Source: Candidatus Poribacteria bacterium (lineage in GTDB: Bacteria; Poribacteria; WGA-4E; WGA-3G). Taken from it: a stretch of DNA of 64,000 nucleotides. The DNA lies in assembly GCA_965205025.1 (NCBI GenBank), contig CBDBFU010000002.1, positions 128,001-192,000 of the forward strand, read 5' to 3'. The notes under the pieces are model-generated. The model searched no databases. It saw only the letters and a list, made by a program, of their open reading frames with translations, and was not told the DNA's origin. The number at the start of each line of letters is the position of its first letter. The first letter of the stretch is position 1. Made by a program: the position numbers and the translations under genes. This document shows positions 13,234 to 29,849 of the stretch, piece after piece.

Positions 13234-14211
13234 ATGTACGAAAAATTAGGTGAGTCCGAACTGAAATCAGGAGAATGCATGGAGGTAGGCGTAATTCACG
13301 CGCCTGATGAACCGCATGCAGACGAAATAAAGGAATTCCTTGGACATAAACCGGGGAATTATAAATGGCATATTGAAAGATGTGTTGATGAACGGCTTGA
13401 TGATTTATCAACACTTTTCTATGTTGGGAAAGTGGATGGCAATGTAATTACCAATATCATGACTGTTGAACACGAAGGGATTGGAATTTTAGGGCATGTA
13501 TTTACACTGCCTGACCAACGTAGAAAAGGGGCATGTAAAGGCACCATGGTTCACCAGATGGAGCACTTTCGAGGACGGAATGGTCGTGCACTCTACTTAG
13601 GAACAGGATACGATAGTCATCCGTATCATATCTATCACGGTTTTGGATTTGATAGCGTTTTTCCTGAATCTGGTTTTATGGAATATCATGTGGAGCAGGA
13701 TTTTCTTGATGATTATTTCGCTGCATCTACAGCGTCTCCTAAATCGGTTGAATGGCATGATTGGCCGAAGTTGACCGCATTGTCTGGAATTGTTGGTGTA
13801 GATATTTTACGGAGTCTTGCTTGGAACATCTACGGTCCATCTAATCTTGAAGGTCCATTTCTATCCTTTAAACATATTCTTGAAACTGAAGATGTGTATG
13901 ATGATGCGAAACTACTCATCTCTGAGAATGGAGCGATCGTTGGTTGGGCAACGGTGTGTAGAGATAGAAAATGGCGTGATAATATTGCTCTTATGGATCT
14001 GTTTTTCCATCCTAATTTTACTGATTCTGTTCCTGATCTACTTTCTGCGGTGGAGTTTCCTGATTTAAAGGTTCAATGTTATGTTGATAGTACGTCTGTA
14101 AAGAAGACGGAGGTATTGGAAGCGGAGGATTTTTCTTGTGAGGGTGAGTTCAAAAATCAGTTTTCGTATGGTGGTGAGGAATATGATGTGTTGGTGTTTG
14201 GACGTGGATGA
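13234..14211 (+). CDS. GNAT-family acetyltransferase (probably two GNAT domains)
   Basis: GHVFTLPDQRRKG acetyl-CoA motif A; YHIYHGFGF motif B. Confidence 0.7.
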   Translation: MYEKLGESELKSGECMEVGVIHAPDEPHADEIKEFLGHKPGNYKWHIERCVDERLDDLSTLFYVGKVDGNVITNIMTVEHEGIGILGHVFTLPDQRRKGACKGTMVHQMEHFRGRNGRALYLGTGYDSHPYHIYHGFGFDSVFPESGFMEYHVEQDFLDDYFAASTASPKSVEWHDWPKLTALSGIVGVDILRSLAWNIYGPSNLEGPFLSFKHILETEDVYDDAKLLISENGAIVGWATVCRDRKWRDNIALMDLFFHPNFTDSVPDLLSAVEFPDLKVQCYVDSTSVKKTEVLEAEDFSCEGEFKNQFSYGGEEYDVLVFGRG

Positions 14212-14226
14212 TTTGCGATCTAAATA

Positions 14227-14340
14227 ATACTATTTCTATAGATGTTTATCCCATGCATAGATGTTAAGCATGTCTTGAAAAACCACACAAACTGGAAGTT
14301 TATGCTACATTAAAGAAACCCTAAATATCAGAAATGGTAT
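14227..14340. mobile_element. MITE-like element family A copy
   Basis: ATACTATTTCT ... AGAAATGGTAT with central CACAAACTGGAAGTTTATGCTAC. Confidence 0.6.
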
Positions 14341-14352
14341 AACTACCTCTTT

Positions 14353-15342
14353 TCACTTTTTGCTTTTATTGAGCGTTGATTCAATCATAGCATGGGTATC
14401 AGGTTCACTACATAGACTGAGAAAAATTTCATGTTCCAAGTCCAACAAGTACTGTTCTGTGACGAACTGTGGTTCTGAAAGTCTACCCCCACAGATAACA
14501 TACGCCAACTTTTCAGCAAGAGACTGCTCATAATCGTTTATGGCGTCTTCCTCTCTCAATTTCTGAACATGTAGATTTATATAGTTTATCCCTTCCTCAC
14601 CTAATACAAATATATTTCGTGGTTGATGTGGCTGATAATTATTGTTACGGAGTGATATGACAAGTTGTTTTGCATCATGTAGTAGGTTTGTTCTATCGGC
14701 AGTGATTAGATCAGATTCACGAAGGAAACCGAGTTTTTTTGCTTCAGCACTGTTTTCTGAAACTTTGGCTTCACGGATGGTGTCAAATGCCTCCAATAAA
14801 TTCGGCATTATCTGCTGAATCGGTGTTGATGTGTTTTTACCATCTAAACAACGGAATGCCATTTCTGTAGTACCACCACCACCGGGGATCAGTCCAACAC
14901 GAAGTTCAACGAGTCCAAGTTTGCTGTTCGTATGTGCTTGTATAGCGTCTGCTCCGATGGCAAGTTCACATCCACCCCCGAGTGCCATACCTGCTGTAGC
15001 TGCTACGACAGGTATTGATGAAAGACGTAGACGCGTACAAACCTTCTGCAGGTTTCTTAGTGTATTTGAAATTGCCTGCCAGTTTTGACTTTGTGCGCGT
15101 TCCAGTAATAGTTTAAGGTTGAGACCTACAGAAAAATGGTATGCTTCTGTACCGAGGATCAAACCTGAATAATTCGTTTCTACTTCGTCCAGGGCAGAAT
15201 TAAGCATTGATAGCATGCTATCTTCTATAATGTTCAACTTACCATGCAATTCAAGATAGGCGATACCATCACCTATGTGAAAAAGGCTTGCTTCTGCACT
15301 GGTTTTAATGGGTTTAGTATCTGATGTTTTGATTGTTGACAT
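14353..15342 (-). CDS. Enoyl-CoA hydratase/isomerase (stand-alone crotonase part of FadN-type proteins)
   Basis: FSVGLNL, GMALGGGCEL, GLVELRVGLIPGGGGT, TEQYLLDLEHEIFLSLC. Confidence 0.85.
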   Translation of the reverse strand: MSTIKTSDTKPIKTSAEASLFHIGDGIAYLELHGKLNIIEDSMLSMLNSALDEVETNYSGLILGTEAYHFSVGLNLKLLLERAQSQNWQAISNTLRNLQKVCTRLRLSSIPVVAATAGMALGGGCELAIGADAIQAHTNSKLGLVELRVGLIPGGGGTTEMAFRCLDGKNTSTPIQQIMPNLLEAFDTIREAKVSENSAEAKKLGFLRESDLITADRTNLLHDAKQLVISLRNNNYQPHQPRNIFVLGEEGINYINLHVQKLREEDAINDYEQSLAEKLAYVICGGRLSEPQFVTEQYLLDLEHEIFLSLCSEPDTHAMIESTLNKSKK

Positions 15343-15390
15343 TCCAATGATTCCTTTAATAGTTAAAACTCGCTATAGGTGTATGATGGG

Positions 15391-15789
15391 TTACGCATCA
15401 AAAATGTATGTGATTTCGTCAAAAGAATCTCGAGCAAATGTGAATATGAAAACCAGGGGTTCTTTTCCCGTGCAACGGACGGAATGTTTAGCATTGGGTG
15501 GTATGTAGATTGTTGATCCTGCGCAGACTTCTGCTTGAGAATCGTCAATTTGCATGAGTCCATTCCCACTGATGATGTAATAGGTTTCTTCTGGTTCGTG
15601 GTGATGTAGTAATAGTGATTCGCCGGGTGGTATTTCAGCTATTCCCGTTACTATTCCGCTACTTGGCATGCGTTCACTTGTGATTAGAAGCTTCCAGCGT
15701 ATAGGACTTTTTGCAGCAATTTCTGGGTCATCCCAACCTTCCCACTCAAGTTCGGACTGATTGAGGATGATAGGTTTCACAGATGTCAT
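15391..15789 (-). CDS. Cupin-2 protein, DddK/DddW DMSP-lyase-like
   Basis: WKLLI..SSG..GIAEIPPG..L.LHHHEPEETYYIISGNG..YIPPNAKH..G.EPL.F..F..DSFDEITY. Confidence 0.75.
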   Translation of the reverse strand: MTSVKPIILNQSELEWEGWDDPEIAAKSPIRWKLLITSERMPSSGIVTGIAEIPPGESLLLHHHEPEETYYIISGNGLMQIDDSQAEVCAGSTIYIPPNAKHSVRCTGKEPLVFIFTFARDSFDEITYIFDA

Positions 15790-16239
15790 AATACTTCCTA
15801 TTCTTTGGATTATACAGATACGGATTAGTTATTATACAGCAATAGGTGTATGGTGACAATTCAATTATGATCTGAGGGTGTGTAAAGTTTTTGTCACTAA
15901 ACCTTATGCTGCTATTGGTCTGGATACCAATATTTATCTCAAGTATCATCTTTAGTTTTCATCTCAACTGTAATTATGTTAGATGTATGGATACTGTATA
16001 TTGTAAAAAACTGTTAATATTTGTCGTTTTGAGATGGTCTCACATTCACGGAAACCTTCACGGAGCATTTTTGCGAGCCCTTATTCTATAAGGGTTTATA
16101 ATTTTAACTATACCCATTCTCCGTGAATCACATACGTTAACTGTTATATAACTTAAATGCGTATGAACTGTATTTCTGGTTTTCAAATGAATACAACATT
16201 TCTATTTGTTCAACTTCCGTTTGCGTCCCATTCCTCTTC

Positions 16240-16283
16240 TGTAGGAGCGACCTCCTGGTCGCGACCGGGAGGTCGCTCCTACA
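16240..16283. repeat. GTAG-type REP inverted pair
   Basis: TGTAGGAGCGACCTCC..GGAGGTCGCTCCTACA perfect 16-bp inverted repeat; a half copy occurs at ~36097-36121. Confidence 0.75.
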
Positions 16284-16433
16284 AGTAAAGTGTCTAAATT
16301 ATATCTAAAGTTTACTATATTTACACACCCTTTAGCGTTCTTTATATTCATCCAATGGGTTATTATACTGTAAATTCCTCGTTTCAACTTATTAACAATA
16401 GTAATATTTATGTTATTTTAATGTTGAAAATAG

Positions 16434-16780
16434 TTACACTTTTTGTCACACGGTGTGACATTGATAAAACCTCTCTCCCGTCAGTACTATACTGGGTTTA
16501 GAGCCACTTTTTTAATGTCACAAGAATTTGTCACTGTGACGATTTTTGTGTCTTTTTCTTTACTTTTGATCCATTGATTTGGAATCGTTTGAATGTGAAA
16601 CATCTTATCCATCCATTTTGACATGGTATTAGAACATATCCCATAAATCATAGATTTGGAGGATTCTTTGTACGTGCAATTTGCTATATTTTGAACCAAC
16701 GGACGGGGAAACACTAATTCTATGAAGAGAATTATATCTGTATGGACGATTCGTAGTAATGAGATACACTGTAGTTTACT
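16434..16780. repeat. Dispersed ~340-bp non-coding repeat, copy 1
   Basis: Colinear with 54998-55340 (e.g. TTACACTTTTTGTCACAyGGTGTGACATTGATAAAACCTCT; CATAAATCATAGATTTGGAGGATTC). Confidence 0.75.
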
Positions 16781-17457
16781 GTTGTGCATGATAGTCTGTT
16801 TTGTTTGAAGTCGGTCTAATTTTTAGTTTTTCAAGTTTTTTTAGTTGCTTTTTAAGAAATGCTTTTTTAATGAGCCGTAAACCCTGTTGGGGGTTGGGAT
16901 AACAAAGGATTTGATTAATAGGTGTAAAATTTTAAAATTAGAAAAACTAAAAAAATATTCGGTTGAATTCGTATTGATTTTCCTCCGTATCTGCTTTTTT
17001 AGCCTCTTACTATATATGTTTTGAGAACGATTCTCAAAAGTTTGCAATTCTGAATATTTTTGTTGTAGTTCTAACATGGATAATCCTATACTCCAGATAG
17101 TGAATTTAGTTAAATGTAGCAGGAAGTTAGAAGTAGCAATAATGAAAGTACCATAAATGTTTATCTCATGAACAGATGTTATACATGGCTTGAAATGCTG
17201 CACAAACTGGAAGTTTATGCTACATTAAAGAGATTTTCAATGATGGGAAACGGTATTCTATAGAATTATGTATTCTGATCCAGTTTCGAATATAATCAAT
17301 CCCGTGAAATCCTAAGTACTGTGTTAGTTTTAGTTTAATATAATTGAACGATATAGTATTGTACAATTTTATTTTCATTTTGACAAATATTTTTATGTTA
17401 TTGTGATATATGTATATTAGTTGTTAGATATTCATGTTTTCTTCATTTTATTTTTAT

Positions 17458-17621
17458 CAGGACTTACGCAGTTTGTGAAGAAAATAGGAGATTTTAGTCA
17501 AAAAATCCGACAATTAAGTACTTTTTGTTTTTTAACCCCCTAAAGAATCAACGGTATGAATGCCTTAGGGCATTCCCCGCCCCTTATCAGGGGAACTTTA
17601 AGAGGAAATGCGTAAGTCCTG
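17458..17621. mobile_element. MITE-like family B copy carrying an inserted ~35-bp micro-element
   Basis: CAGGACTTACGCA..TGCGTAAGTCCTG. GAATCAACGGTATGAATGCCTTAGGGCATTCCCCG (17545-17579) interrupts the CCCCCTAAA/CCCCTTATC motif. Confidence 0.75.
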
Positions 17622-18130
17622 TTTCTTCAATAAATATACTTTAGGTAAATCCGAAAGGGTCATTAGTGTAGTGAGAATAAACTGTAAATCGGTAAATTCT
17701 GATTGGATTTATTTGTAATTGAGATTTCATTGGTGTTTATTATAGTGGCAAAGAGTTTACGCACCTATGATCTGATTTCAAGGGTATTGAAACAACGATA
17801 ACCAACTTACAAGTCAATGCAATACTGCTCGGATACGCGATCGTGACATTGGGATTTATTACACGATTGAGCAATGAGTTTTCTGGTTTTACATTAGGTG
17901 TATTCCTGAATCAATGTTAGGTCGTCCATTGATGTCGTTCAAATATATGATCATAGCATAAGACAAAATAGAAATATCAAACTTATTACAAAAAGTTAGA
18001 TAGGACAAGTCTTGAGTTTAATATTGACATAATATTACCATCATGTTATGATTATCCAAAATTGAATTAGTCTAAGAATATCTATTGCGCGCATCTCACC
18101 TTAAGATTTCTTAAATTCTGAATTAATATT

Positions 18131-20086
18131 ATGATTACTTACAAAGAATGGAATAAAGCACTTATTTCCTATTTTTTTGAAAAACGAGAACCTGGGGAAA
18201 TAGTCTTTCTACACACGACTTCTGAAACATTACCTGATATTGTGAAGCATGCAGGTTTTGATGTTGCGGATGCTGAAGAAAGTTTGAAGGAAACAGTAAG
18301 AAAACAGGTTATATTAAACAGAATCATTCCTACCGATGAGATTTGGCTTCGCAGGATCTCTCCTGCAGAAAAAGAACCTCCGCACATGGCTTTCCTTGCC
18401 CTTTGTGTACTCGCTGCAAGTAATATGGAAAAATCTGAAGAAGCCTCTCATACCAATTATTATGTGCAATTAAACAAACTACTGTTTGACAAATCGAATG
18501 GAGGAAAACCAAAAGGACTCAAATATCAAGATTGGGAAGAAAACTGGATATATCTCCAAGATTGGGTGAAAGATAAGCATGACGTAGAACTATATCTGAC
18601 AGAAGGTCATCCAAAGTATGTTTGGTATCCGATTTCGCAATGTCTGATTAGTAAATATGACGAACATAAACTTCATACTATTTTTAAGGAAGCTAAACTG
18701 AAACCTGGAGCATACCTTGCCGAGAAACAACTTTTTGACATACTTCGTATAAGCAAATATTTTCAAAATCTTTCAGTGAAAATAAAACGACCTTTAGAAC
18801 AAAAAACTGCTGAAATCCGATTGATTTTAGGTCAAGTCCAATTGCTTTTAGAAAACTGGGATGGTATAGTACAGGAGAGAAAGAAAATCGGATGGGCAGA
18901 AGAACGTAAGACTTACATAATTGATGTCCAACTAAAATTCAATCCATTCAGATCCGAACAAATTGATCAGCTTCGCTACTGGTTTAGATGTAGACGAAAC
19001 CCTCAAATTACTTTCAAAGCCAATTCACTAAACGTAAAAACTCTACAGTCAGATGATGGCAAGTGGTTTGAACCATTCGTTGTGGATGCTGATATTTCAA
19101 CACTCCAAGTACTGCAAAAAGGTATTGATATCAGATCTGAAGAAGCAAAATCGTTAACTTATCAGTTAAAACCTAACAATATTTGGGTTTTCCGGAACGA
19201 ATCAGAACCAGATGAAGGTTGGTTTAGCAAAGGGAACCTTTTGCTACACGAAGACCACCGTATAGTATTTCGCAAAGAACGTCGTAATCGAGTCACATCA
19301 ATATTGGAAATTGTATGCGAACCATTTAATCCGCCACAATCAATTTACATTGACCGTGAAGAAACAAATTGGCAATTTGTTGATGTTAAGCCAACAGTTT
19401 TAGCCAAATCAGATATTTTAGGATATCGTATAACGACATCAGAGCAAATTAGTTTTGTTGGTGGATTGCCTTTAGACAGACGAAAAAACCAATATTTTGA
19501 CTTTTGCCTTCCTACGATTGTTGTTCCTGACTACTATACAGTATCCGATGAACCTCTTTATTTCAATGGTAAAGCAATGAATGTACCAAGTAACCGAAAA
19601 ATTGTGCTTACTAAGAAACTTGATCCGGGTGAATATGAACTCTCCTATCTAATAAATTCTCGACCAAAATTGCGCGTTGTTTCTCTCAAACGCTCATGTG
19701 ATTTTGAAACTCAAACCTTTGTAATCAATATTGATCTTAATTCTAAGGATCCTCCTTTTTTCAAGGAATGTAATCTTGCCGAGATTTCAGATGATTCAAA
19801 ATTATGGCTTTCAGGAGCGAAGTTTTTTGGAGAAGACAAAATCCCGCGCTTGCCAAATGGTGGCAAAGGAGTATCTGCTTTGTCTGCTGCTGAACTTGTC
19901 TCGTCAATTGTGAAAGTCGCAATGGAACTAAAGCAGGATAATATTGATCTTCCAGAGTGGTTAAACAACGCAATGAATATTCTAAATCAAGACATAGCAT
20001 TACAAGCACTCGTAAAAAAGAAACTATATGATTACCGAGAAATTGCCCTGTCATATCAAGAACTCTCCGCTTTGGGAGGTGATTGA
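18131..20086 (+). CDS. Druantia-like accessory protein 1 (resembles N-terminal part of DruH/DruF/DruC-type proteins)
   Basis: First gene of a coupled operon upstream of a DruE-like helicase; Y.EWN.AL..YFF, FLALCVLAAS, YV.YPISQCL, FVGGLPL motifs. Family assignment is from recall. Confidence 0.6.
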   Translation: MITYKEWNKALISYFFEKREPGEIVFLHTTSETLPDIVKHAGFDVADAEESLKETVRKQVILNRIIPTDEIWLRRISPAEKEPPHMAFLALCVLAASNMEKSEEASHTNYYVQLNKLLFDKSNGGKPKGLKYQDWEENWIYLQDWVKDKHDVELYLTEGHPKYVWYPISQCLISKYDEHKLHTIFKEAKLKPGAYLAEKQLFDILRISKYFQNLSVKIKRPLEQKTAEIRLILGQVQLLLENWDGIVQERKKIGWAEERKTYIIDVQLKFNPFRSEQIDQLRYWFRCRRNPQITFKANSLNVKTLQSDDGKWFEPFVVDADISTLQVLQKGIDIRSEEAKSLTYQLKPNNIWVFRNESEPDEGWFSKGNLLLHEDHRIVFRKERRNRVTSILEIVCEPFNPPQSIYIDREETNWQFVDVKPTVLAKSDILGYRITTSEQISFVGGLPLDRRKNQYFDFCLPTIVVPDYYTVSDEPLYFNGKAMNVPSNRKIVLTKKLDPGEYELSYLINSRPKLRVVSLKRSCDFETQTFVINIDLNSKDPPFFKECNLAEISDDSKLWLSGAKFFGEDKIPRLPNGGKGVSALSAAELVSSIVKVAMELKQDNIDLPEWLNNAMNILNQDIALQALVKKKLYDYREIALSYQELSALGGD

Positions 20087-21915
20087 CTGTGTATATAAAA
20101 CAATATCCTGAAGAAAAGCGAAAGATATTAGCTGAACATAGCACTAAGAATATTGATGATTTCGTAAAATTTTTGGAAGAAATTAAAGGTATAGAGGCAT
20201 CATATCTACAAAAGATGCTTACTCCTCCAAAAGGTTTTCCCAAAAATAAAAAACTAAAAACAGAAACAAGACACTATCTATTTAAGCAATTCATTTCCAA
20301 ATTGGTAGGAGAAAAAGATTTCTCTAATCCTGACTCTGACGTTTGGAATAAGTTTGGGCAGATTTTCAGATGGTGGGTCAAATCACAATCCGAACTTTTC
20401 AAAATACTTGAGGATTTTAAAAATGATGAGGATTTTGAGGAAAATGATAAGTCAGTTGAACCTAATAGTGTCCTTGATATCAAGTGTTTTGAAATCCTAC
20501 TCAAAGCAAATCGCAAACTCCAAATAAATCAGGAAATAATCCGGCGTTTTTACCAGTTCGGATATTTCCTCAAAGATGAACAAATTGAAGATCTTATTGA
20601 TAATGCTTTAACTCAAGAAGACATTGATCACAAGTGGAGAATAAAGGAACTTCCTGACAAGGTTGATGAATTATCTGAAACGATCTCGGATATTAAATCT
20701 CGTGTCTCTGCCGTGGAGTCTGCTAATGAATTGAAGCAGGAACTGAATGAACAAATTACAGGGTTAAGCAAATCCTTTGAGGATAATATCCAGAAACTCA
20801 ACGAACAAATTACAGAAGTCAGTGAAGCACTTAATGAAAAAATATCTAAAATAGAATTGAGTCAAACCAGTGATTTATCTAACCAGATTAATTCATTTAA
20901 ATCTCAGTTCACCGAGCTTAAAAAATCGGTTAGTAAGCTTGAAGATAAACGCCAAACAACTGAAGTGCCGCGAATTGCTAATCAAGCCGTAGAGATTGGA
21001 GAAAAAGCTGCTTCATTAATTAAAAATCGAAAAAAAACTAAAAATGAAAAAGATTACTTGAAAGCATTTAGTATCCCCCTCTGGCTTCTTGGAATTACTA
21101 ATCCTGAAGATTCTATTAAGACTGAAGCTATTCATATTGCGTTAAAGGCTTTTTCTGTTATAGAAATTCCTGACACACGAATTATTAACGCATGGAAAGC
21201 TGCTTGTGGTAACAACTTACACATCACAACACTTGATGTAGGAATGGGTTGGCTTGATTCACAAGATTGGTTTCCCAAACTTTTTTCTGAAATATGTTTT
21301 GGAGAACAATTAAGGCAAATGGATCTTGATGTTTCTGTAGAGGAAATGATAAACAAGGGTAATTTTTTATGGGCAATTCACTTAAATAATTACGACCGTT
21401 CATTTCCAGAAAGTTATCTACCCAGATTTCTAAAATGGTTGGGAGAACGCAAAGCCTTTGCTAAAGTCTTCGTAACGCGATGTCACAGTGAGAATCGTTG
21501 TAAAACCAGTTTTGAGGTATATAATGAAGTGGGTCAACTACCTAAACCCACAAAAACGCTGTCTATTAATCCGACAACACTACCGGATACTGATGCTATT
21601 ATTGATAAATCAGTTTGGGGAAAGTGGTGTCAGCCATCTGAGGAGACATTGTATAAAACAGAGGTTCAATTCTTGGACAAATTACAATCAGAAATAGAGA
21701 ATATCCCTTTATCACTTTTTCAGGACATCCAATCTTACCTTCTATTATCACATCAGATTATTGATCCTGATAAAGCCCTTGACTGGGCGTTATACTTACG
21801 CCTATGTCCTTGGATTGATGGTAGAACCAAAATTGAGGATGGTTTGTTTAGCTTAATCAACCAAGTCGATCTGGATCTACCGAAAACCAGGGCAGTTCTA
21901 CAGGAAAATTTTTAA
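20083..21915 (+). CDS. Coiled-coil protein with degenerate McrB-like AAA+ domain
   Basis: TTG start overlaps upstream TGA. Central coiled coil (~aa 190-290). DVGMGWLDSQDW and IHLNNYDRSFPESYLPRFL resemble McrB V..xW.D and LDE.NL..E.Y..FL, but there is no Walker A. Confidence 0.6.
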   Translation: MTVYIKQYPEEKRKILAEHSTKNIDDFVKFLEEIKGIEASYLQKMLTPPKGFPKNKKLKTETRHYLFKQFISKLVGEKDFSNPDSDVWNKFGQIFRWWVKSQSELFKILEDFKNDEDFEENDKSVEPNSVLDIKCFEILLKANRKLQINQEIIRRFYQFGYFLKDEQIEDLIDNALTQEDIDHKWRIKELPDKVDELSETISDIKSRVSAVESANELKQELNEQITGLSKSFEDNIQKLNEQITEVSEALNEKISKIELSQTSDLSNQINSFKSQFTELKKSVSKLEDKRQTTEVPRIANQAVEIGEKAASLIKNRKKTKNEKDYLKAFSIPLWLLGITNPEDSIKTEAIHIALKAFSVIEIPDTRIINAWKAACGNNLHITTLDVGMGWLDSQDWFPKLFSEICFGEQLRQMDLDVSVEEMINKGNFLWAIHLNNYDRSFPESYLPRFLKWLGERKAFAKVFVTRCHSENRCKTSFEVYNEVGQLPKPTKTLSINPTTLPDTDAIIDKSVWGKWCQPSEETLYKTEVQFLDKLQSEIENIPLSLFQDIQSYLLLSHQIIDPDKALDWALYLRLCPWIDGRTKIEDGLFSLINQVDLDLPKTRAVLQENF

Positions 21916-21925
21916 GAGGTGGTCA

Positions 21926-22819
21926 ATGCGTCAGAATCGTACACGTTTTTTAGATGAATTACTTTACTACCTTTCACATCTCGGTAAGATGCCTTGGGTA
22001 AAGTTTAAACAAGGAATTGAATGCCTAAATAGAGATAACAAGAATCCCCAAAGTGACTCCTTTTACCTTAAATCTCTTGCCTCTGTCGGACACTTGGAAT
22101 ACGATCCTGCGATATTAGATTGGGTTTATGTTGCTCCTCCGGTCCTTGTAGAAACTGCCACTCCAAACCAGTATGTTCTTGCCGGTAGTAGAACACCGGA
22201 CTTCATTTCTAAAATAGAGAAAACTGCATTATCAAATGGCGGGAAGTTACATCGTATTCAAGAAGTTGTTCCTGTTACCACAATTGTTTTGCGTGATTTG
22301 AACGAAGCGTCTATAAAGGAGATTGAAGGATGTGGTGTTCATATTAGCATTAAATTCTCCAAGAAATTGTCTTGTATCCTCCCCAATTTACGTTTAAATA
22401 GTTTTGCGCCAGATGAGTCTATGCTAAGTACACCAATTGAGAAATTTAACATTGAGACGTTGAAGTATGAAAATAATTCTTCAAATATATCTGAAGGTCT
22501 CTTTCGCATAATGAATCATGGACGTTATACACACTTCTTAAAATTGAACAATATTCAACGAATAGTACCACCAGAATGGGGGGCATGGTTAATACTTCGT
22601 GCCTTTCGCAAATCCAAATTAATATATTACAAAAAAGAACAGAACATCTTGCAGGTGAAGTTTCCACTGACTTTACCATTATTGGCAAACCGATGTGCGG
22701 TGCTCTGCTCTGGACACATACCTACATTGAAAAATGGGTTTTATTGTTACCGCAATGTCCCGATTGAGATAGCAGACAACATAGCCAAATCACTTAACCA
22801 ACAACTTGAGGAACAATAA
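21926..22819 (+). CDS. Druantia-like accessory protein 3 (resembles DruD / C-terminal part of DruH)
   Basis: GAGGTGG RBS; LASVGHLEYD..VAPPVLV..YVLAGSRT and LPLLANRCAVLCSG..P..Y.NVP..IA..IA.SL; TAATG overlap with the helicase. Confidence 0.6.
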   Translation: MRQNRTRFLDELLYYLSHLGKMPWVKFKQGIECLNRDNKNPQSDSFYLKSLASVGHLEYDPAILDWVYVAPPVLVETATPNQYVLAGSRTPDFISKIEKTALSNGGKLHRIQEVVPVTTIVLRDLNEASIKEIEGCGVHISIKFSKKLSCILPNLRLNSFAPDESMLSTPIEKFNIETLKYENNSSNISEGLFRIMNHGRYTHFLKLNNIQRIVPPEWGAWLILRAFRKSKLIYYKKEQNILQVKFPLTLPLLANRCAVLCSGHIPTLKNGFYCYRNVPIEIADNIAKSLNQQLEEQ

Positions 22820-25800
22820 TGACAGATCCTTTTGATATTTCTAATAAACTACGTGAATCCTATATTCGATATATTGAAACGGCTTTTAAGTTCAACAGTC
22901 CATCTTTAGAACAGAAGCCTGTTTTAGAACAGGAACGTCGAGCACTACTACAAAAAGAAGGCATGATTTATCAAGAACCACTCTTTGAACCGATTCTCCC
23001 TCCTAATTCGTCAGAGAAAACGCTATTCCAAGTTTGTTCTAATCTTGGAATCTCAAAAGATATTGCAGAATTCTTGGCTGCAGGTGGTGAAGAAGGACTT
23101 GCCCCGAGAACACGGAAACTTTACAAAAACCAATTTAAAGCAATAAAGGCTTCGTTAATTGACAAGCGAGATGTTGTTGTTACTACAGGAACGGGTTCTG
23201 GTAAAACAGAGTGTTTTCTTTTACCTATATTTAGTCAATTGGTCATGGAATCAAAAAATTGGCAACCATATGGAGACCGAAAACCTAAACCTTGGACGGA
23301 AAAAGGAAAAAGACAACGGGATGGTGAACACAAAGATAGACAGGCGGCGATTCGTGCACTAATTTTGTATCCGTTGAATGCACTGGTTGAGGATCAGTTA
23401 ATGCGGCTTCGCGGGGCGTGTGATAGTCCTAATGCTCATAAGTGGCTTGATGAGAACCGTGATGGGAATCGTTTTTATTTTGGACGTTACATTGGTTCAA
23501 CCCCTGTCGCAGGATCTGAGGAAAGAGATTACAAACGCATATTATTACGTGAAGAATTAAATAAATTATATGAACAAGCAAGACAAATTAAAGCCCAGGT
23601 TCAAAAGACAGATGATCAAAACATTCGTTACTATTTTCCACTAATGGAACCAGATACGGCAGAAATGTGGTCGCGTTGGGATATGCAGGATTATCCACCG
23701 GACATATTAATTACAAATTATGCGATGTTAAACATCATGTTAATACGAGATTTAGAGGAATCAATCTTTGAGAAAACGCGCGAATGGTTAGAAAAAGACG
23801 ATAGCGTTTTCTATCTTGTTGTAGATGAATTACATTCTTATCGTGGAACATCTGGGACGGAAGTTGCCTATCTGTTAAGAACACTGTTTTCTCGTCTTGG
23901 TCTTGAACCTGATTCGCCAAAATTGCGAATAATAGCGAGTAGTGCATCTTTAGAAGGAGAATATGGAGATAAATATCTCAAACAATTTTTTGGAAGAAGT
24001 AGCAGTTTTGAGCGAATTACTTCAGATCCAATTTGTGCTTCAGACGAACCGCTTCGCGAGTGTTTGAAACATGCAGATGCATTTAAGACGTATGATGAGG
24101 GATACAAGGATACAGAATTACCCGTCAAACCTGAAATGCTTAAAGAAGCGGTAATTAGACTCTGCAATCAAAATGAAAAATTACTTGCGTCAAAGATAGA
24201 TCAAATGGTTACTGTTGCAAAGGATGTCGTAGGAGAGGAAATTTCAGAACAAACTATTCGCGGTATGATTCGTTATCTAATTCGTCAGAAGAACCCTCAG
24301 GAACCTGAACAAGCACTTCTGCCGTTGCGTACACATTACTTATTCAAGAATTTTGAGGGGATATGGGTATGTAGTAATCAAGCATGTAGTGGGGTCGAAC
24401 ACGCTGAACAACGTCCTCCAATAGGTAAGTTGTTCTCAGCTCCGAAAACTCTCTGTGATGATTGTGGGTCGCGCGTGTTGGAGTTGTGGGCATGTCAAAC
24501 ATGTGGTGATCTGTTTTTAGGTGGCTATAAAAGACCAGTTTCTAAAGATCCACTAGACGGTTGGTGGCTTAGTGGTGACTTCCAACAGTTGGAAGGTTTG
24601 CCAGAACGTAATATCAAAGATCGGAGATATAGCAACTATGCCATTTTTTGGTTGGGGACAGAAAAGCCGAAACAACCCCAACCCTGGTGGAGGAAAAACG
24701 GAATTAAAAGAAAATGGACAAAGGGACAATTTGACTCATTTCGTGGTGTTCTTAAACCCAAACCATCTGAAAATAACTGCTACTTTTATAAAATTTTCGA
24801 AAACGAATTGAATAAGAATGACACAGATAAATGTTCAGAAGTCCCAAAATACTGTCCAAAATGTGGAGACTTTTGGGATTTTTTGTCGGAACGGTTTATT
24901 GGTGGTAAGGAAGAGGCTGTCTCACCAATCCGTAAAATGGGAACAGGATTGCAAAGGGTACTTCAAGTTCTCGTTCAGACCTTGCAAAATTCAATTGATG
25001 ATGAAAATAAACGCAAAACGATTGTTTTTTCTGACAGCCGAGGTGACGCTGCTAAATTGTCAGTAGGTATAGAGTATTCACATTACTTAGACATGATACG
25101 TTCCATTACGGTCAAGTCTTTAGACGAAGTGGAAGAAAGCCCTGATTTGATGACGATTCTTGATGCTATTCAAGGTAAAGAAATAGATCATGTCAAGTTT
25201 TATGAGGCACTCGGTCGAATTGCCGGAATGCCGGGATGTGAAGGTACCTTAATTCATTCCATTAACGAGGCATCTACGAAAAATGAAAGTTTAACTGAAG
25301 AACAAGAAACCCAACTTCGCTCCTTGTTCTCCGATTACTCTTTTATAAAACTTGAAAACAGCGTTTTTGATCGTTTTATTAATCTTGGAATGAATCCTGG
25401 AGGTTATGGTATAAAAGTTGATGGTTACTCACAACAAGTAAAAGATGGTGAAGAAGTGCGCAGATGGGTGGAACTATTTGATTGGTCTGAAAATACAGTA
25501 TCAAGAAAAGAATTCGAAGGTTTGAGTGATCCTCAAAAGGACCTCTTACGCAGAATTCAACAACAACTTCGTCAAACAATTACAGAACGTATTTTGTTTG
25601 CTCGTAGGGGAACAGGTTTAGAAGGACTCGGATTGGGGTGGTGTGAACCGAAAATTGATCCTAAACTATGGACAATTGATGAACTTGATGTAGCAGAAAT
25701 GATGTCAGCAGTCGTACGGATTCTTGGTGAGCGGAATCGGACAACACTCACTCATAAACCATATCCGGATATACCGGATTTCCTTAAGAAATACCTAAAT

Positions 25801-28308
25801 AAATCAGCTAAGCAAATTGATTGTGAACCAACCGAACTGGAATCAGTAATTAAGGATCAAATTGGCTTAAATGACGGAAGTTTCGACCAAAACCGCGTTA
25901 ATATGGAGAGACTGGTAATTCGAAAGCGCAAGAATAATCTGGTTTTTATATGCTCAGTTTGCCAACGCATACACCTCTATAAAGCAAGCGGACTCTGTAC
26001 AAACACCTTGTGTTTAGGTGATTTAAAACCTATTGAGATTGTTGATATATCTGAAAAATTTGGAGGTTATCATTCCTATCAGGCAAAGTTAGGTATTGAA
26101 CCTTACCGTCTCCACTGTGAAGAATTATCAGGGCAAACAGATTCAGAGGATAGACCCAAGCGACAACGCTGGTTCCAAAATGCAACTCTCAACAGCGAAA
26201 ATAAACGTTCTGATCCTGTAGATTTGCTTTCTGTAACAACAACAATGGAGGCAGGTGTTGACATTGGAGGACTCTCTATTGTTTTAATGGGTAATGTTCC
26301 TCCCCAACGTTTCAATTATCAGCAACGGGTAGGCCGTGCAGGAAGACGTGGAGATGCGGTTTCTTACGCATTAACGCTGTGTCGATCGCGGACTCATGAT
26401 GAACACTACTTTACAAATCCAGAAGAAATTACCAGTGCACCAACTCCACCGCCGTATCTTGATCTGCGACGCGATGATATAATAAAACGTATCATTGCAA
26501 AAGAGGTACTGTACCAAGCATTCAAAGATGTTTCTAAAGCAAATGAGTTTTCAGACACCGATAATGTACATGGTGAGTTTGGAAAAGTATCGGATTGGAA
26601 GACGAATCGAAAACAACTTATAAAATGGACATCGTCAAATAGAAGTAGAATAAAACAGATCGTCCAGTTGCTTAGTGTCCAGACTGAGCCGGAAATAGCC
26701 AACAATGTCTATGAACTAATAGACTGGGTTGTCAAGGAACTTGTAAATGAGATTGATAAGTATGCCGAAAACCATCCATTTGAGATGGACGACCTGAGTC
26801 AAGCCCTTGCAGAGTCGGGACTTTTACCAATGTTTGGTTTCCCAACGCGAACCCGTTTGTTGTATCATGAAAAGCCAAAAGGTAAGCCATGGCCACCAAA
26901 GTCTGGCAAAGTTGACCGAGACATTGAGGTAGCGATTAGCGAGTTTGCTCCAGGTTCAGAAACGATCAAAGACAAAAGAATCCATACTTCAATAGGAATA
27001 GTCTCTTACCGTCCTTCCTGGAATAACTATGCAATTCCTGAAGATGGTATAGCACACCCCTTGACAATCGGTTTTTGTCCTGAATGTAAATCCATTTTTG
27101 CCAACGAAGAATCCGTGGAAGCTGCTTCTTGCCAAACCTGTAATGCTGAAAGTGGATTTCAGCAAATAGAAAGTTTTGAACCAAAAGGTTTTCTGACAGA
27201 TTTTCAACCTACAGATGCTGCCGAATATTTTGAATGGAAACCTCGCGCAACCTACTCTCGTCTTCCTTCGGATATTAATATTAAATTCAATACGAATACT
27301 AATTTCCATTACGGAACGAATCGTGATGAAAAAGTCCATTTGTTATCAATTAATAATAATGATGGATCGGGTTTTAATCTTGGAAGATTTAAAAGAGGAA
27401 AAGAGTTGGTGTCACCTCAAGTTTTAAAAGAATTGGTAGAACGAAAAAATGGTAAATTTGACCAAGACCAAGTTTTTGAAGGCAAACTCAAAAAAACCGC
27501 TATTCACGCAAGTAAAGTAACCGACGTATTATTGATAGAAATCAACTCAATTCCGGATGGAATTAAGTTAGATTATACTGAAGTTTACGCTCGATCAGCC
27601 TTATATTCTTTTGGTTATCTTCTACGCAAATATGCTGCAATTCAAGAATTGGACATTAGCACAGATGAATTACAGGTAGAAATTCGCCCTTTCCGACGCG
27701 ATGAAAATGTCTATGGGCAAATATTTCTCGCTGATAAGTTGGCGAACGGTGCTGGATATTGTCGTCATCTTGCTGATTTCAATGATAAGGGTGAACTTCG
27801 TCTTAGGAACATACTACAAAAGATGGTAAAAGAAGATTCTAATTTTTACCGTGAACTTGTAGATCATGGACATCAATGTGATTCATCTTGTTACAAATGT
27901 ATGCGGGATTACTCAAATATGGCATATCACCCGCTTATGGATTGGCGATTGGGTATGGATTTAGTCAATCTCTGTCTTAATGAAGAATTTGCTATCAATC
28001 TTGAGAAACCATATTGGTCGCCGCTTGTGAAGAGTGTAAAAAAGAACCTATTAGAACTAGTTGGCAATGAGAATGAAATGAAATGGGAGAATCGCTATGG
28101 AATACATATTCTTTTAGGTCAAATAAAAAACGAGAAAAAAGCGTTTATTTTGCATCATCCACTCGCTGTTTACGATAAATCAGACCCCAGACCGGAGAAT
28201 TTCGCTCGTGTTTTTGTTGAATTAAAGAAAGAAGGATTCCTTATAGAAACTATCAACATTTTTGAAGCAATTAGAAGGATAAGCGAATTTATCGAACTAT
28301 TCTATTAA
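22819..28308 (+). CDS. druE: DruE-like DExH-box helicase with C-terminal DUF1998 (MrfA-type Zn) domain, 1829 aa
   Basis: TGTGSGKTE, LYPLNALVEDQ, SRWDMQDYPPDILITN, VVDELHSY, SSAS, VFSDSR, TTTMEAGVDIG, QRVGRAGR, several CxxC, D..ANGAGY and C..SC..C. Size and N-terminus (DPF..RESYIRYIETAF) are DruE-like. Confidence 0.8.
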   Translation: MTDPFDISNKLRESYIRYIETAFKFNSPSLEQKPVLEQERRALLQKEGMIYQEPLFEPILPPNSSEKTLFQVCSNLGISKDIAEFLAAGGEEGLAPRTRKLYKNQFKAIKASLIDKRDVVVTTGTGSGKTECFLLPIFSQLVMESKNWQPYGDRKPKPWTEKGKRQRDGEHKDRQAAIRALILYPLNALVEDQLMRLRGACDSPNAHKWLDENRDGNRFYFGRYIGSTPVAGSEERDYKRILLREELNKLYEQARQIKAQVQKTDDQNIRYYFPLMEPDTAEMWSRWDMQDYPPDILITNYAMLNIMLIRDLEESIFEKTREWLEKDDSVFYLVVDELHSYRGTSGTEVAYLLRTLFSRLGLEPDSPKLRIIASSASLEGEYGDKYLKQFFGRSSSFERITSDPICASDEPLRECLKHADAFKTYDEGYKDTELPVKPEMLKEAVIRLCNQNEKLLASKIDQMVTVAKDVVGEEISEQTIRGMIRYLIRQKNPQEPEQALLPLRTHYLFKNFEGIWVCSNQACSGVEHAEQRPPIGKLFSAPKTLCDDCGSRVLELWACQTCGDLFLGGYKRPVSKDPLDGWWLSGDFQQLEGLPERNIKDRRYSNYAIFWLGTEKPKQPQPWWRKNGIKRKWTKGQFDSFRGVLKPKPSENNCYFYKIFENELNKNDTDKCSEVPKYCPKCGDFWDFLSERFIGGKEEAVSPIRKMGTGLQRVLQVLVQTLQNSIDDENKRKTIVFSDSRGDAAKLSVGIEYSHYLDMIRSITVKSLDEVEESPDLMTILDAIQGKEIDHVKFYEALGRIAGMPGCEGTLIHSINEASTKNESLTEEQETQLRSLFSDYSFIKLENSVFDRFINLGMNPGGYGIKVDGYSQQVKDGEEVRRWVELFDWSENTVSRKEFEGLSDPQKDLLRRIQQQLRQTITERILFARRGTGLEGLGLGWCEPKIDPKLWTIDELDVAEMMSAVVRILGERNRTTLTHKPYPDIPDFLKKYLNKSAKQIDCEPTELESVIKDQIGLNDGSFDQNRVNMERLVIRKRKNNLVFICSVCQRIHLYKASGLCTNTLCLGDLKPIEIVDISEKFGGYHSYQAKLGIEPYRLHCEELSGQTDSEDRPKRQRWFQNATLNSENKRSDPVDLLSVTTTMEAGVDIGGLSIVLMGNVPPQRFNYQQRVGRAGRRGDAVSYALTLCRSRTHDEHYFTNPEEITSAPTPPPYLDLRRDDIIKRIIAKEVLYQAFKDVSKANEFSDTDNVHGEFGKVSDWKTNRKQLIKWTSSNRSRIKQIVQLLSVQTEPEIANNVYELIDWVVKELVNEIDKYAENHPFEMDDLSQALAESGLLPMFGFPTRTRLLYHEKPKGKPWPPKSGKVDRDIEVAISEFAPGSETIKDKRIHTSIGIVSYRPSWNNYAIPEDGIAHPLTIGFCPECKSIFANEESVEAASCQTCNAESGFQQIESFEPKGFLTDFQPTDAAEYFEWKPRATYSRLPSDINIKFNTNTNFHYGTNRDEKVHLLSINNNDGSGFNLGRFKRGKELVSPQVLKELVERKNGKFDQDQVFEGKLKKTAIHASKVTDVLLIEINSIPDGIKLDYTEVYARSALYSFGYLLRKYAAIQELDISTDELQVEIRPFRRDENVYGQIFLADKLANGAGYCRHLADFNDKGELRLRNILQKMVKEDSNFYRELVDHGHQCDSSCYKCMRDYSNMAYHPLMDWRLGMDLVNLCLNEEFAINLEKPYWSPLVKSVKKNLLELVGNENEMKWENRYGIHILLGQIKNEKKAFILHHPLAVYDKSDPRPENFARVFVELKKEGFLIETINIFEAIRRISEFIELFY

Positions 28309-28320
28309 GGATATATTTTT

Positions 28321-29421
28321 ATGCAAGTTCAACCACTACCAAAACTCAATCCAATCACGAAGCTTTCCCCTACACTTTTTGCCACCTTAAGACAGTGTCA
28401 ATTACGTGCAGGATTAAGTCACGCCAGAGCTCAACGGACAACCAAAATTTCAACAGCCGCACTGTTAGGAACGATTGCCCATCGCGTATTAGAAGATGCA
28501 AGAACATTGAAACGTGATGAGGATTTACGAAAACAGGCAAAGACACTGTGGGATAAAACTGTGGAACAAGTAGAGAAGACACTACAGAATTCACCACTTG
28601 ACAAGAGCTTATTGCCAATTAGTAGATGGAAAAAATACTACCTTTTAAGAGAATATACGATTTGTAGATGTGAAGAGATTGCGCTGGGTCACGGAATATC
28701 TGAAAGGCAGGTCATCGCAAGTGAGCGAAAATTCGATAATCTTGAATATGGATTCACTGGCAAACCTGATTTAATCATTCGTCGAGAAAATGGTCTGGTA
28801 ATAATAGACTACAAAAGTACCGAGTTATCTGATGATCCAGAAGAGCGAGATGAAAAGGTTGAATCTTGGCGACGACAAGTCAAGTTCTACGCTTCAATTG
28901 TAAAATCTGAATTTGGAGAGTATCCAGTAGAAGGAGAAATCAGATTACTAAACGGAGGTGTAATCCCAATTCCTATCAATCCTGAGGAAGTGGAACAACT
29001 CATGGCAGAAGCAAGAATATTAAAAGAAAAGTACAATGCTAATATTGCTGCGGGTGTTCCAGAATCGAAATTGGCACAATATTCCGAAGAGAATTGTGGT
29101 TTTTGTGATTACAAAGGGTCATGTAACACATTCTGGAAAATGAATCCAATTCCAGGTGCGGACGAATTCGGTTCCTTGAGTGGGAAAATCGTTAGATTAT
29201 CAAATACAGAAAAAGGAGTAGGTAGTATTGTCATTGCTTCTGATATGAAAAACGAAGCAACGAAGGAATGGAAGATTACGAATCTATCAATAGATAAATT
29301 CGAAGGACTTAGGGAATTGAAAAAAGGAGATTTTGTTAGGTTAATTGACTTTAAAATAGATTCTCAAAATGAATTTCATGCAAAACCCACTCGAAATTCA
29401 GTCATTTGGAAGGTTCCCTAA
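28321..29421 (+). CDS. PD-(D/E)XK nuclease (AddB/Cas4-like, putative Fe-S staple) with C-terminal OB-like domain
   Basis: LSPT..QC, GTIAH, SE, GKPDLI, IIDYKS, Q..FY, CGFCDYKGSC (1+3 Cys). Confidence 0.85.
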   Translation: MQVQPLPKLNPITKLSPTLFATLRQCQLRAGLSHARAQRTTKISTAALLGTIAHRVLEDARTLKRDEDLRKQAKTLWDKTVEQVEKTLQNSPLDKSLLPISRWKKYYLLREYTICRCEEIALGHGISERQVIASERKFDNLEYGFTGKPDLIIRRENGLVIIDYKSTELSDDPEERDEKVESWRRQVKFYASIVKSEFGEYPVEGEIRLLNGGVIPIPINPEEVEQLMAEARILKEKYNANIAAGVPESKLAQYSEENCGFCDYKGSCNTFWKMNPIPGADEFGSLSGKIVRLSNTEKGVGSIVIASDMKNEATKEWKITNLSIDKFEGLRELKKGDFVRLIDFKIDSQNEFHAKPTRNSVIWKVP

Positions 29422-29477
29422 TTCTATTCAAACAATACTATCTAATGGGAGTTCGGTTTAAGCAATAGTATCCATTA

Positions 29478-29836
29478 GTGCGGTTAGATACCGTACCATA
29501 GGCGTCAATTAGATACACCTTTCGCCCCGCTGGGGCTTATTATTTAGGGTTTGTACGTTTGCTACATACCTTTCGCCCCGCTGGGGCTTGGTATATTGGT
29601 GATAACGACTTCTATAAACATTCCGTCCCTACCAAATCAACGGTATGAATGCCATTTAGGCATTCCCCGGGACTCATTTAATGGGTTAATCCTTTTTCTA
29701 TAGACATTCCGTCCCTACGGGACTCAAGTATAGGATATTCCCGTTTTTCTATAGACATTTCGTCCCTACGGGACTACATAAATTATAAGAATAGAGAAGA
29801 AATGTAAGGATCGGGGATCGGAGTTCCCTCCTACAG
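29478..29836. repeat. REP cluster bounding the defence operon
   Basis: 2x TTCGCCCCGCTGGGGCTT; 3x CGTCCCTACGGGACT (the first interrupted by the micro-element at 29633-29669); GTGCGGTTAGA.ACCG.ACC. Confidence 0.75.
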
Positions 29837-29849
29837 AAGAGGTTATACG

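Follow-up and report, generated by a model that had tools for sequence, protein, structure and literature searches.

The locus described here raises the question of whether five adjacent genes of a Candidatus Poribacteria bacterium form a new kind of Druantia defence system or a known one with additions. The genes lie at positions 18,131 to 29,421 of the window, which is the whole stretch of 64,000 nucleotides (nt) analysed from contig CBDBFU010000002.1, and are called druF, gene 2, druL, druE, and druK (F, X, L, E, and K in gene orders). An original prediction made from the same DNA had described them as an atypical or undescribed Druantia subtype with a dedicated nuclease effector. The present analysis instead favours, with a probability of about 0.7, a Druantia type IV system (druF, druL, and druE) on a chromosomal island, which also carries the optional nuclease gene druK and, between the druF and druL halves, a lineage-specific gene of the DruC family.

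Assignment to Druantia type IV

PADLOC models were run on the proteins of the locus, with matches reported at E ≤ 0.01, and four of the five genes received a name, namely DruF4, DruL4, DruE4, and DruK. Type IV is a computational definition only, comprising DruE, DruF, and DruL without DruM or DruG (Payne et al. 2021, Nucleic Acids Research (NAR) 49:10868, PMC8565338), and the account of it in that paper gives 168 instances in 11 phyla and no experiment. According to a more recent preprint (Loeff et al. 2026), there are four DruE clades, I to IV, and type IV makes up 18% of 566 Druantia loci. The operon contains a DruE of the type IV clade, a DruF beside DruE, and a DruL. For comparison, the best 80 of 277 DruE relatives were taken as 78 loci, in which open reading frames (ORFs) were called and searched with phmmer and with hidden Markov models built from the matches, and the arrangement F-L-E was seen around DruE relatives of many phyla. 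No DruM or DruG match was found among the operon proteins, and the DruG2 and DruM2 models, one model each, had 0 matches genome-wide at E ≤ 0.01. DruA (DUF4338) was not matched in the operon either, and the DruA1 model had 0 matches genome-wide, a weak negative because the positive control for this model also gave no match anywhere.

The original prediction of a Druantia operon with a DruE helicase (DruE4 E-value 0) at its core, and with neither DruA nor a methylase, holds, its DruA part resting on that weak negative. Its proposal of an atypical or undescribed subtype does not, because the core is PADLOC Druantia type IV (PMC8565338), an already described subtype, and DruK is already a PADLOC model. 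Four of the five proteins are named by the models, and the identity of gene 2, a homolog of the type I component DruC, had been overlooked. DruK exists as a PADLOC model name, for which no printed description was found; the name is absent from the main text and one supplement of Payne et al. 2021 (PMC8565338), and no paper was found that names DruK together with Druantia, or Poribacteria together with Druantia.

The druE gene, judged by its sequence, encodes a putative YprA/MrfA-family superfamily 2 (SF2) helicase of 1829 amino acids (aa) belonging to the type IV clade. Its match to DruE4 (PDLC00051; E 0, 1687.8 bits) spans profile positions 3-1821 of 1829, compared with 1555.6 bits for DruE2 and 674 bits for DruE1. 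Pfam recognized DEAD and Helicase_C domains, while MZB/DUF1998 was sub-threshold (23.3 bits vs a cut-off of 24.2), and the protein carries GSGKT at residue 126, DELH at residue 336, and seven CxxC motifs. Its sequence matches in PDB are 9wae_A (E 5.9e-168), 9tu7_Y (E 1.2e-55), and YprA (6znp, E 7e-10). An 'inactivated Vsr' domain has been reported for DruE of types I and II; in the tail of druE here, Pfam at E ≤ 5 found nothing.

Genes 1 and 3 had been proposed to be separated halves of a DruH-type protein, and the idea of two halves of one protein is supported, while the DruH identity is replaced by DruF. No DruH model matched either gene at E ≤ 0.01, a result judged by models and not by a DruH sequence. 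Gene 1 matches DruF4 (E 3e-34) with residues 2-497 on profile positions 1-500 of 678, leaving its C-terminal 150 aa uncovered, and it also matches DruF2 models, aligning with the N-terminus of a long DruF2 (PDLC00016, positions 23-415). Gene 3 matches DruL4 (E 8.4e-31) with residues 10-296 on profile positions 4-307 of 309, and in addition the C-terminus of the long DruF2 models (771-1028 of 1030, E 7e-14). Furthermore, a profile search for longer proteins recovered one natural fusion, P0177 (1030 aa, E 1.9e-28), on which the F profile lies at residues 6-483 (probability 99.6) and the L profile at residues 730-1027 (probability 99.5); PADLOC models place DruF2 over the full length of this fusion and DruL4 on its residues 735-1026. 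Genes 1 and 3 are therefore halves of one long DruF, of which DruL is the detached C-terminal domain. A shifted split point between F and L was also considered and rejected, since the last 150 aa of Poribacteria DruF, searched against non-Poribacteria L proteins (54 targets, 21 of them at least 420 aa long), returned no match with an E-value under 0.69.

DruF and DruL are also predicted to bind each other. The modelled complex scored a median of 0.68 in three runs (0.68, 0.72, and 0.68) vs 0.00 for the best control, and the score mark used was reached by 116 of 157 solved pairs vs 2 of 215 mismatched pairs. Contact agreement between runs was at least 57% and the predicted local distance difference test (pLDDT) value of the partners at least 81. 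The predicted interface joins residues 444-565 of F with residues 11-160, 215, and 253-260 of L, and it includes the invariant residues G445 of F and H56, G87, and R256 of L. The AlphaFold2 (AF2) model of DruL (pLDDT 91.2, predicted template modelling score (pTM) 0.88) consists of a winged helix plus alpha/beta domains, with the fold match limited to the N-terminus, where a weak winged-helix match was obtained (best VIA Z 6.3, residues 6-98 only). Foldseek gave no match to this model at E ≤ 1e-3, and the best score in the ESM Atlas was 0.78. Genes 1 and 3 had no Pfam match and druF had no NCBIfam match; a search of PDB sequences with the F and L profiles gave no match, and two DruF fragments searched in Pfam at E ≤ 5 returned only a chance-level Fn3-like match (E 0.031, below the cut-off). 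A homolog search with DruL alone recovered only close relatives, with at least 71% identity.

Gene 2 encodes a full-length, divergent homolog of DruC, a type I component, as comparison of sequence families shows. Its direct match to DruC1 is weak and partial (E 9.7e-10, residues 26-300), and its other library matches are coiled-coil noise, as are the matches of DruC1 itself at E ≤ 1e-3 in 9 of 14 control genomes. The gene 2 family is compact (86 proteins, all with at least 35% identity), with 62 invariant columns among 40 members and a mean column identity of 47%. Proteins of about 590-680 aa, with 25-32% identity over the N-terminal ~300 residues, were added by an exhaustive phmmer search (59 matches). 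Fourteen distant relatives were scanned against DruC1; nine matched strongly (E 1.7e-40 to 1.8e-64), one weakly (6e-11), and four not at all at E ≤ 1e-5. Compared by hhalign, the gene 2 family and the DruC-like family align over 508 columns, covering gene 2 residues 2-573 (probability 100, E 6.3e-55). Among 21 metagenome loci collected with a DruC-like alignment, 20 have type I neighbours (DruA, DruB, DruD, or a DruE scoring best as type I) and none has a DruF4 or DruL4 match. Because DruC relatives elsewhere keep type I neighbours in this way, the operon can be viewed as a mosaic of a type IV core and a type I-type DruC. A scan with DruC1 of 400 genomes from another class gave 0 matches at E ≤ 1e-20, which is uninformative, as the control was also silent. 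Three proteins of 595-639 aa (P0113, P0126, and P0134) match gene 2 over ~340-550 residues; DruC1 is weak on them (E 6e-11, 1.4e-4), with none at E ≤ 1e-5 for P0134, and they may be further X-like lineages.

The original prediction had described gene 2 as coiled-coil and McrB-like, which the structural comparison bears out. In its AF2 model, built with 40 sequences (pLDDT 73.9), the N-domain is helical, residues from about 178 to 290 form a coiled-coil hairpin of low confidence, and an alpha/beta domain carries a helical lid. Residues 320-597 were placed by VIA, over 48,161 chains, on MoxR-class AAA+ proteins (2r44_A, Z 15.1, root-mean-square deviation 3.6, 249 residues aligned), with further matches to RavA (Z 12.1), BchI (Z 10.5), and McrB (Z 7.2-7.3), and all Foldseek rows displayed were AAA+-type NTPase assemblies at E 5e-3 or weaker. 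The profile gave coiled-coil noise only against PDB sequences. Neither gene 2 nor its family consensus contains a Walker A motif (GxxxxGK[ST]), and for this reason the AAA+ domain is read as catalytically dead. DruG was considered as an identity for gene 2 and rejected (hhalign probability 1.4 vs type II DruG; DruG2 model without a match genome-wide). Druantia types I and II have been reported to encode inactivated coiled-coil homologs of CnuB, a McrB-like protein (Bell et al. 2025, preprint PMC12458937). The coiled coil and dead AAA+ domain of gene 2 fit the CnuB-like proteins of that preprint, a likeness by description only, and its account of Druantia leaves unsaid which Dru gene is CnuB-like.

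Among loci in which F and L were both seen, all 17 from Poribacteria and none of 50 from other phyla have gene 2 between druF and druL, and the Poribacteria loci that keep it have DruE proteins diverged to 51-54% identity. In a FastTree phylogeny of 71 full-length DruE proteins with midpoint root, Poribacteria form a single clade. Decayed copies of the system were also seen, with druE in pieces of 933 and 865 aa around an opposite-strand ORF in L018, gene 2 in three pieces with inserted ORFs in L031, and druF in two pieces in L032 (L numbers denote loci and genomes of the comparison).

The product of druK is a probable Cas4/AddB-type iron-sulfur (Fe-S) PD-(D/E)XK nuclease, by its motifs, which are intact, and its Fe-S cluster is predicted; on this point the original prediction was right. 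The protein matches the PADLOC DruK model at E 6.7e-30, Cas4 models at E 1e-10 and weaker, Pfam PDDEXK_1 at E 4.4e-23, and, weakly, NCBIfam addA (E 0.003). All 15 aligned homologs, which come from Poribacteria and other phyla, have each of the residues C26, D150, D163-x-K165, Q186xxxY190, and C259-x2-C262-x5-C268, and the extra C-terminal ~100 aa have no Pfam match at E ≤ 5. Among loci with at least 1300 nt downstream of druE, DruK follows in 8 of 17 from Poribacteria vs 5 of 46 others. It is patchy inside the Poribacteria clade, being present in L034 and absent from the sister locus L028. Where it is absent, the genes after druE are mutually unrelated and encode an oxidoreductase, a DUF4268/PDC-S11 protein, an M50B peptidase, a DUF805 protein, or a TIR-TPR protein. 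DruK is hence an optional accessory rather than a defining effector, and the dedicated nuclease effector that had been proposed is not borne out.

Weight of the evidence and a tentative mechanism

Several observations weigh against the favoured reading. No phage test of type IV Druantia was found in the literature. Pfam detects no nuclease domain in druE, and 9 of 17 Poribacteria loci and 41 of 46 others lack DruK and have no consistent replacement, so that the system must work without DruK or use another nuclease. DruF and DruL have no detectable enzyme motif, Pfam family, or solved relative, which leaves a sensor role for the pair as conjecture. The Poribacteria DruE shows only three short deletions and no lineage-specific insertion that could serve as a docking site for gene 2. 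Moreover, gene 2 may be dispensable, because two loci, L028 and L034, retain only its AAA+ part (364 and 371 aa) and in L031 it is in three fragments.

These last points are what would be expected of an ordinary type IV Druantia in which the DruC-like gene has no part in the system, being either a passenger or an insertion in decay, and the lack of gene 2 in type IV loci outside Poribacteria agrees with this explanation as well. It is nevertheless improbable, given that gene 2 persists in every Poribacteria locus despite the divergence of DruE, that its family is conserved at the level of invariant columns and mean identity given above, and that it is tightly spaced, with a 4-nt overlap onto the druF stop and 10 nt between its end and druL. 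Gene 2 is also homologous to an established Druantia component and not to a mobile-element gene, and even in the shortened forms the remaining AAA+ part follows druF directly and in frame.

An alternative of similarly low likelihood is a type I-like Druantia that has lost DruA, in which DruF and DruL would be extremely diverged DruB and DruD and types I and IV would share a ground plan of B/F-C-D/L-E. The gene order and sizes run in parallel: the type I operon of Pseudomonas putida pKF715A (NZ_AP015030.1) encodes DruA of 409, DruB of 558, DruC of 625, DruD of 260, and DruE of 1841 aa, the last four corresponding to F, X, L, and E of 651, 610, 297, and 1829 aa. The DruC homology spans the full length of gene 2, and a Cas4/DruK-like nuclease (380-392 aa) follows DruE in three of six type I metagenome loci with a whole DruE and downstream sequence. 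Against it, profile-profile comparison by hhalign gave a probability of only 0.13 for F vs DruB (13 sequences) and 1.6 for L vs DruD (11 sequences), with no PADLOC match to DruB or DruD; druE scores 1688 bits on DruE4 vs 674 on DruE1; and no DruA was found in the genome, a weak negative. A DNA repair or recombination module outside defence, in which a helicase works with a nuclease as in MrfA/YprA with a nuclease partner or AddAB, is very unlikely. The membership of DruE in the YprA/MrfA family, the weak likeness of DruK to AddA/AddB nuclease domains (NCBIfam addA), and the lack of a phage test of type IV in the literature found would all suit such a module, whereas Druantia models are by far the best matches, the operon is patchy within the genus with a clean empty site, other defence-type genes occupy the site in sister loci (ThsB-like TIR-TPR in L024, PDC-S11 in L028), and phage protection by DruE of types I and III has been published.

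Under the favoured reading of a type IV core with a DruC-family gene and an optional DruK, the steps of action can be sketched only tentatively, and they are far less certain than the classification and the anatomy. DruF and DruL would form one complex with a sensor or adaptor role, as DruH does in type III, and this complex might bring DruE onto single-stranded or forked phage DNA. The idea of a partner that recruits DruE is borrowed from work on type III (DruH); in preprints of 2026, the type III DruE is described as a 3'-5' helicase or helicase-nuclease acting on phage DNA that is forked or contains single-stranded DNA, and DruH as the protein that recruits or activates it. The DruC-like protein would be unable to hydrolyse NTP and could be a coiled-coil/AAA+ scaffold or regulator of assembly, as has been proposed for the inactivated CnuB-like proteins of types I and II, and DruK, where present, might degrade the DNA unwound by DruE. 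A broader and still more doubtful suggestion is that the Poribacteria operon keeps or re-creates a common multigene Druantia plan, composed of a two-part partner, a dead-AAA+ DruC scaffold, DruE, and an optional Cas4-like nuclease, which would link types I, II, and IV; the DruC-like protein would then bridge the DruF-DruL sensor to DruE and gate DruE-DruK against phage replication intermediates.

Layout of the operon and its chromosomal site

The ORF list agrees exactly with the five same-strand genes, sizes, and tight junctions of the original prediction (Table 1). The druF and gene 2 reading frames overlap by 4 nt and those of druL and druE by 1 nt, while 10 nt separate gene 2 from druL and 12 nt separate druE from druK; the TTG start of gene 2 overlaps the stop of druF, and the final base of druL is base 1 of druE. 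The G+C content is 0.31-0.38 at 16-23 kilobases (kb) vs ~0.39-0.43 across most of the window. A sigma-70-like match lies upstream of druF, and such consensus matches number 32 in the region vs a mean of 42.7 in shuffled versions; the match is a candidate and no evidence of a promoter, because the shuffles give more matches of this kind.

Table 1. Coordinates of the operon genes and associated features in the window.
Feature	Position	Strand	Description	Source
druF	18131-20086	+	651 aa, ATG start	ORF list
druC-like gene 2 (X)	20083-21915	+	610 aa, TTG start	ORF list
druL	21926-22819	+	297 aa	ORF list
druE	22819-28308	+	1829 aa	ORF list
druK	28321-29421	+	366 aa	ORF list
Candidate sigma-70-like promoter	18024-18052	+	TTGACA-17-TATGAT, 11/12, TG; ~80 nt 5' of druF	consensus scan only
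Repeat cluster	29517-29775	.	~50-nt units with small GC hairpins, 3' of druK	
Island	14212-29849	.	between GNAT and C25 peptidase genes; enoyl-CoA hydratase, cupin, two small ORFs, repeats, five-gene operon	

The first hairpin of the downstream repeat cluster (29524-29536) is followed by a T-rich run and is terminator-like, and a copy related to these repeats is present left of the operon at 17538-17600. Repeats thus flank the operon, as had been noted; they do not mark island borders, because the family is dispersed genome-wide, a 71-nt query from the left copy having 55 matches in the 5.66-Mb assembly. The family consists of short intergenic sequences with GC-rich hairpins, resembling repetitive extragenic palindromes or miniature inverted-repeat transposable elements (REP/MITE-like), and often occurs in tandem clusters, such as that at G000:C2:174667-175759.

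Insertion among unrelated genes, also part of the original prediction, is supported both by the neighbours, which encode aconitase, NDK, a GNAT acetyltransferase, enoyl-CoA hydratase, a cupin, and a C25 peptidase, and by an empty site in three same-genus genomes. In these genomes (L098, L099, and L100), which lack DruE, the GNAT gene (13234-14211 in the window) and the C25 gene are adjacent, with a spacing of ~25 nt in L098. F-X-L-E directly follows the GNAT gene in L020, L022, L033, and L034, with K also present in L022 and L034, and the C25 gene lies downstream of F-X-L-E in L022, L033, and L034. Of 19 same-genus genomes searched, counting the one analysed here, 5 have a full-length DruE, as does 1 of 12 further genomes of the order. 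The site appears to gather other defence genes, because in sister loci a TIR-TPR gene (L024:12954-15164; ThsB-like, E 1e-25), whose start overlaps the druE stop, and a candidate defence gene of DUF4268/PDC-S11 type (L028:15587-16624; E 5e-113) sit directly after druE.

Two small island ORFs on the minus strand, of 120 aa (16841-17203) and 100 aa (16487-16789), have no Pfam family; the 120-aa ORF has a weak partial match to AbiEii (E 3e-4) and may be what is left of a different defence gene or of a toxin-antitoxin gene. The C25 gene (29850-35027, minus strand) encodes a gingipain-like Peptidase_C25 protein of 1725 aa with propeptide, CARDB, and FlgD-Ig/CHU_C-type C-terminal domains according to Pfam, the last being a sorting domain best known from type IX secretion of Bacteroidota. 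Its ortholog (58-66% identity) is present in 5 of 5 same-genus genomes searched, and each of the five has two more distant C25 paralogs (27-31% identity).

Comparison with described Druantia types

Type IV accounts for about a fifth of Druantia loci, yet no experimental record or proposed mechanism was found for it. The locus shows that a dead-AAA+ protein of the DruC family can, on the present reading, join a type IV core, which ties types I and IV together and offers a natural comparison of loci with and without the gene. Loci of type IV and of type I alike can have a Cas4-like Fe-S nuclease behind DruE, which would be a recurrent but optional effector, and the identity of DruL as the detached C-terminal domain of DruF, with predicted mutual binding, is a point open to direct testing. 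The locus also marks a stable defence hotspot in the uncultured sponge symbionts of the Poribacteria. The inserted DruC gene, the reading of DruF as split, and the nuclease that recurs add modestly, and in testable form, to what is known, with function inferred; they refine the classification of Druantia and point to protein pairs, and current views stand.

Among the described types, type III (DruH-DruE) resembles the operon in being built on a DruE helicase. It differs in DruH, for which Ig-like repeats and a helical domain that binds DruE have been described, whereas the DruL model consists of winged-helix and alpha/beta domains, and in DruE, which carries PLD nuclease domains in type III (PMC12458937), none of which Pfam detected in druE here. 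For type II (DruM-F-G-E, as in Agrobacterium pusense pR76, NZ_CP053858.1), DruE2 is the next-best model for druE, DruF is shared, and the long fused DruF2 corresponds to DruF plus DruL of this operon. Type II differs in its cytosine methylase and DruG, neither of which was matched here. On pR76, a separate gene for a very-short-patch repair endonuclease lies right after the type II druE (L097:14859-15278), a further example of a small nuclease gene behind DruE.

Types I and II have together been termed 'Type IV CoCoNuT' (Bell et al. 2025, PMC12458937). Type I shares with the operon DruC, the gene 2 homolog, placed two genes upstream of druE, as well as similar gene sizes and, in some loci, a terminal Cas4/DruK-like nuclease; it differs in that no DruA was found here, in a DruE of another clade, and in DruB and DruD without detectable similarity to DruF and DruL. 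Genes for Cas4/DruK-like Fe-S nucleases end the type I operons at L104:15468-16640, L105:17332-18474, and L109:17601-18779, where DruA has moved downstream or is inverted, and no description of such a type I layout was met in the literature examined. With nucleases of the Cas4/AddB/Dna2 type in general, druK shares the N-terminal Cys plus CX2CX5C, D...D-x-K, QxxxY, and PDDEXK_1. Compared with Cas4, it is about twice as long, has the extra C-terminal ~100 aa, and stands outside a CRISPR or AddAB context.

Type IV as defined by Payne et al. 2021 remains the nearest system. The DruE clade, the F-L-E order, the absence of DruM and DruG, the operon-like spacing, and the wide phyletic spread are alike, whereas the main text of that paper (PMC8565338) describes only DruE, DruF, and DruL for the type, and the operon analysed here differs in having a DruC-family gene between druF and druL and DruK after druE.

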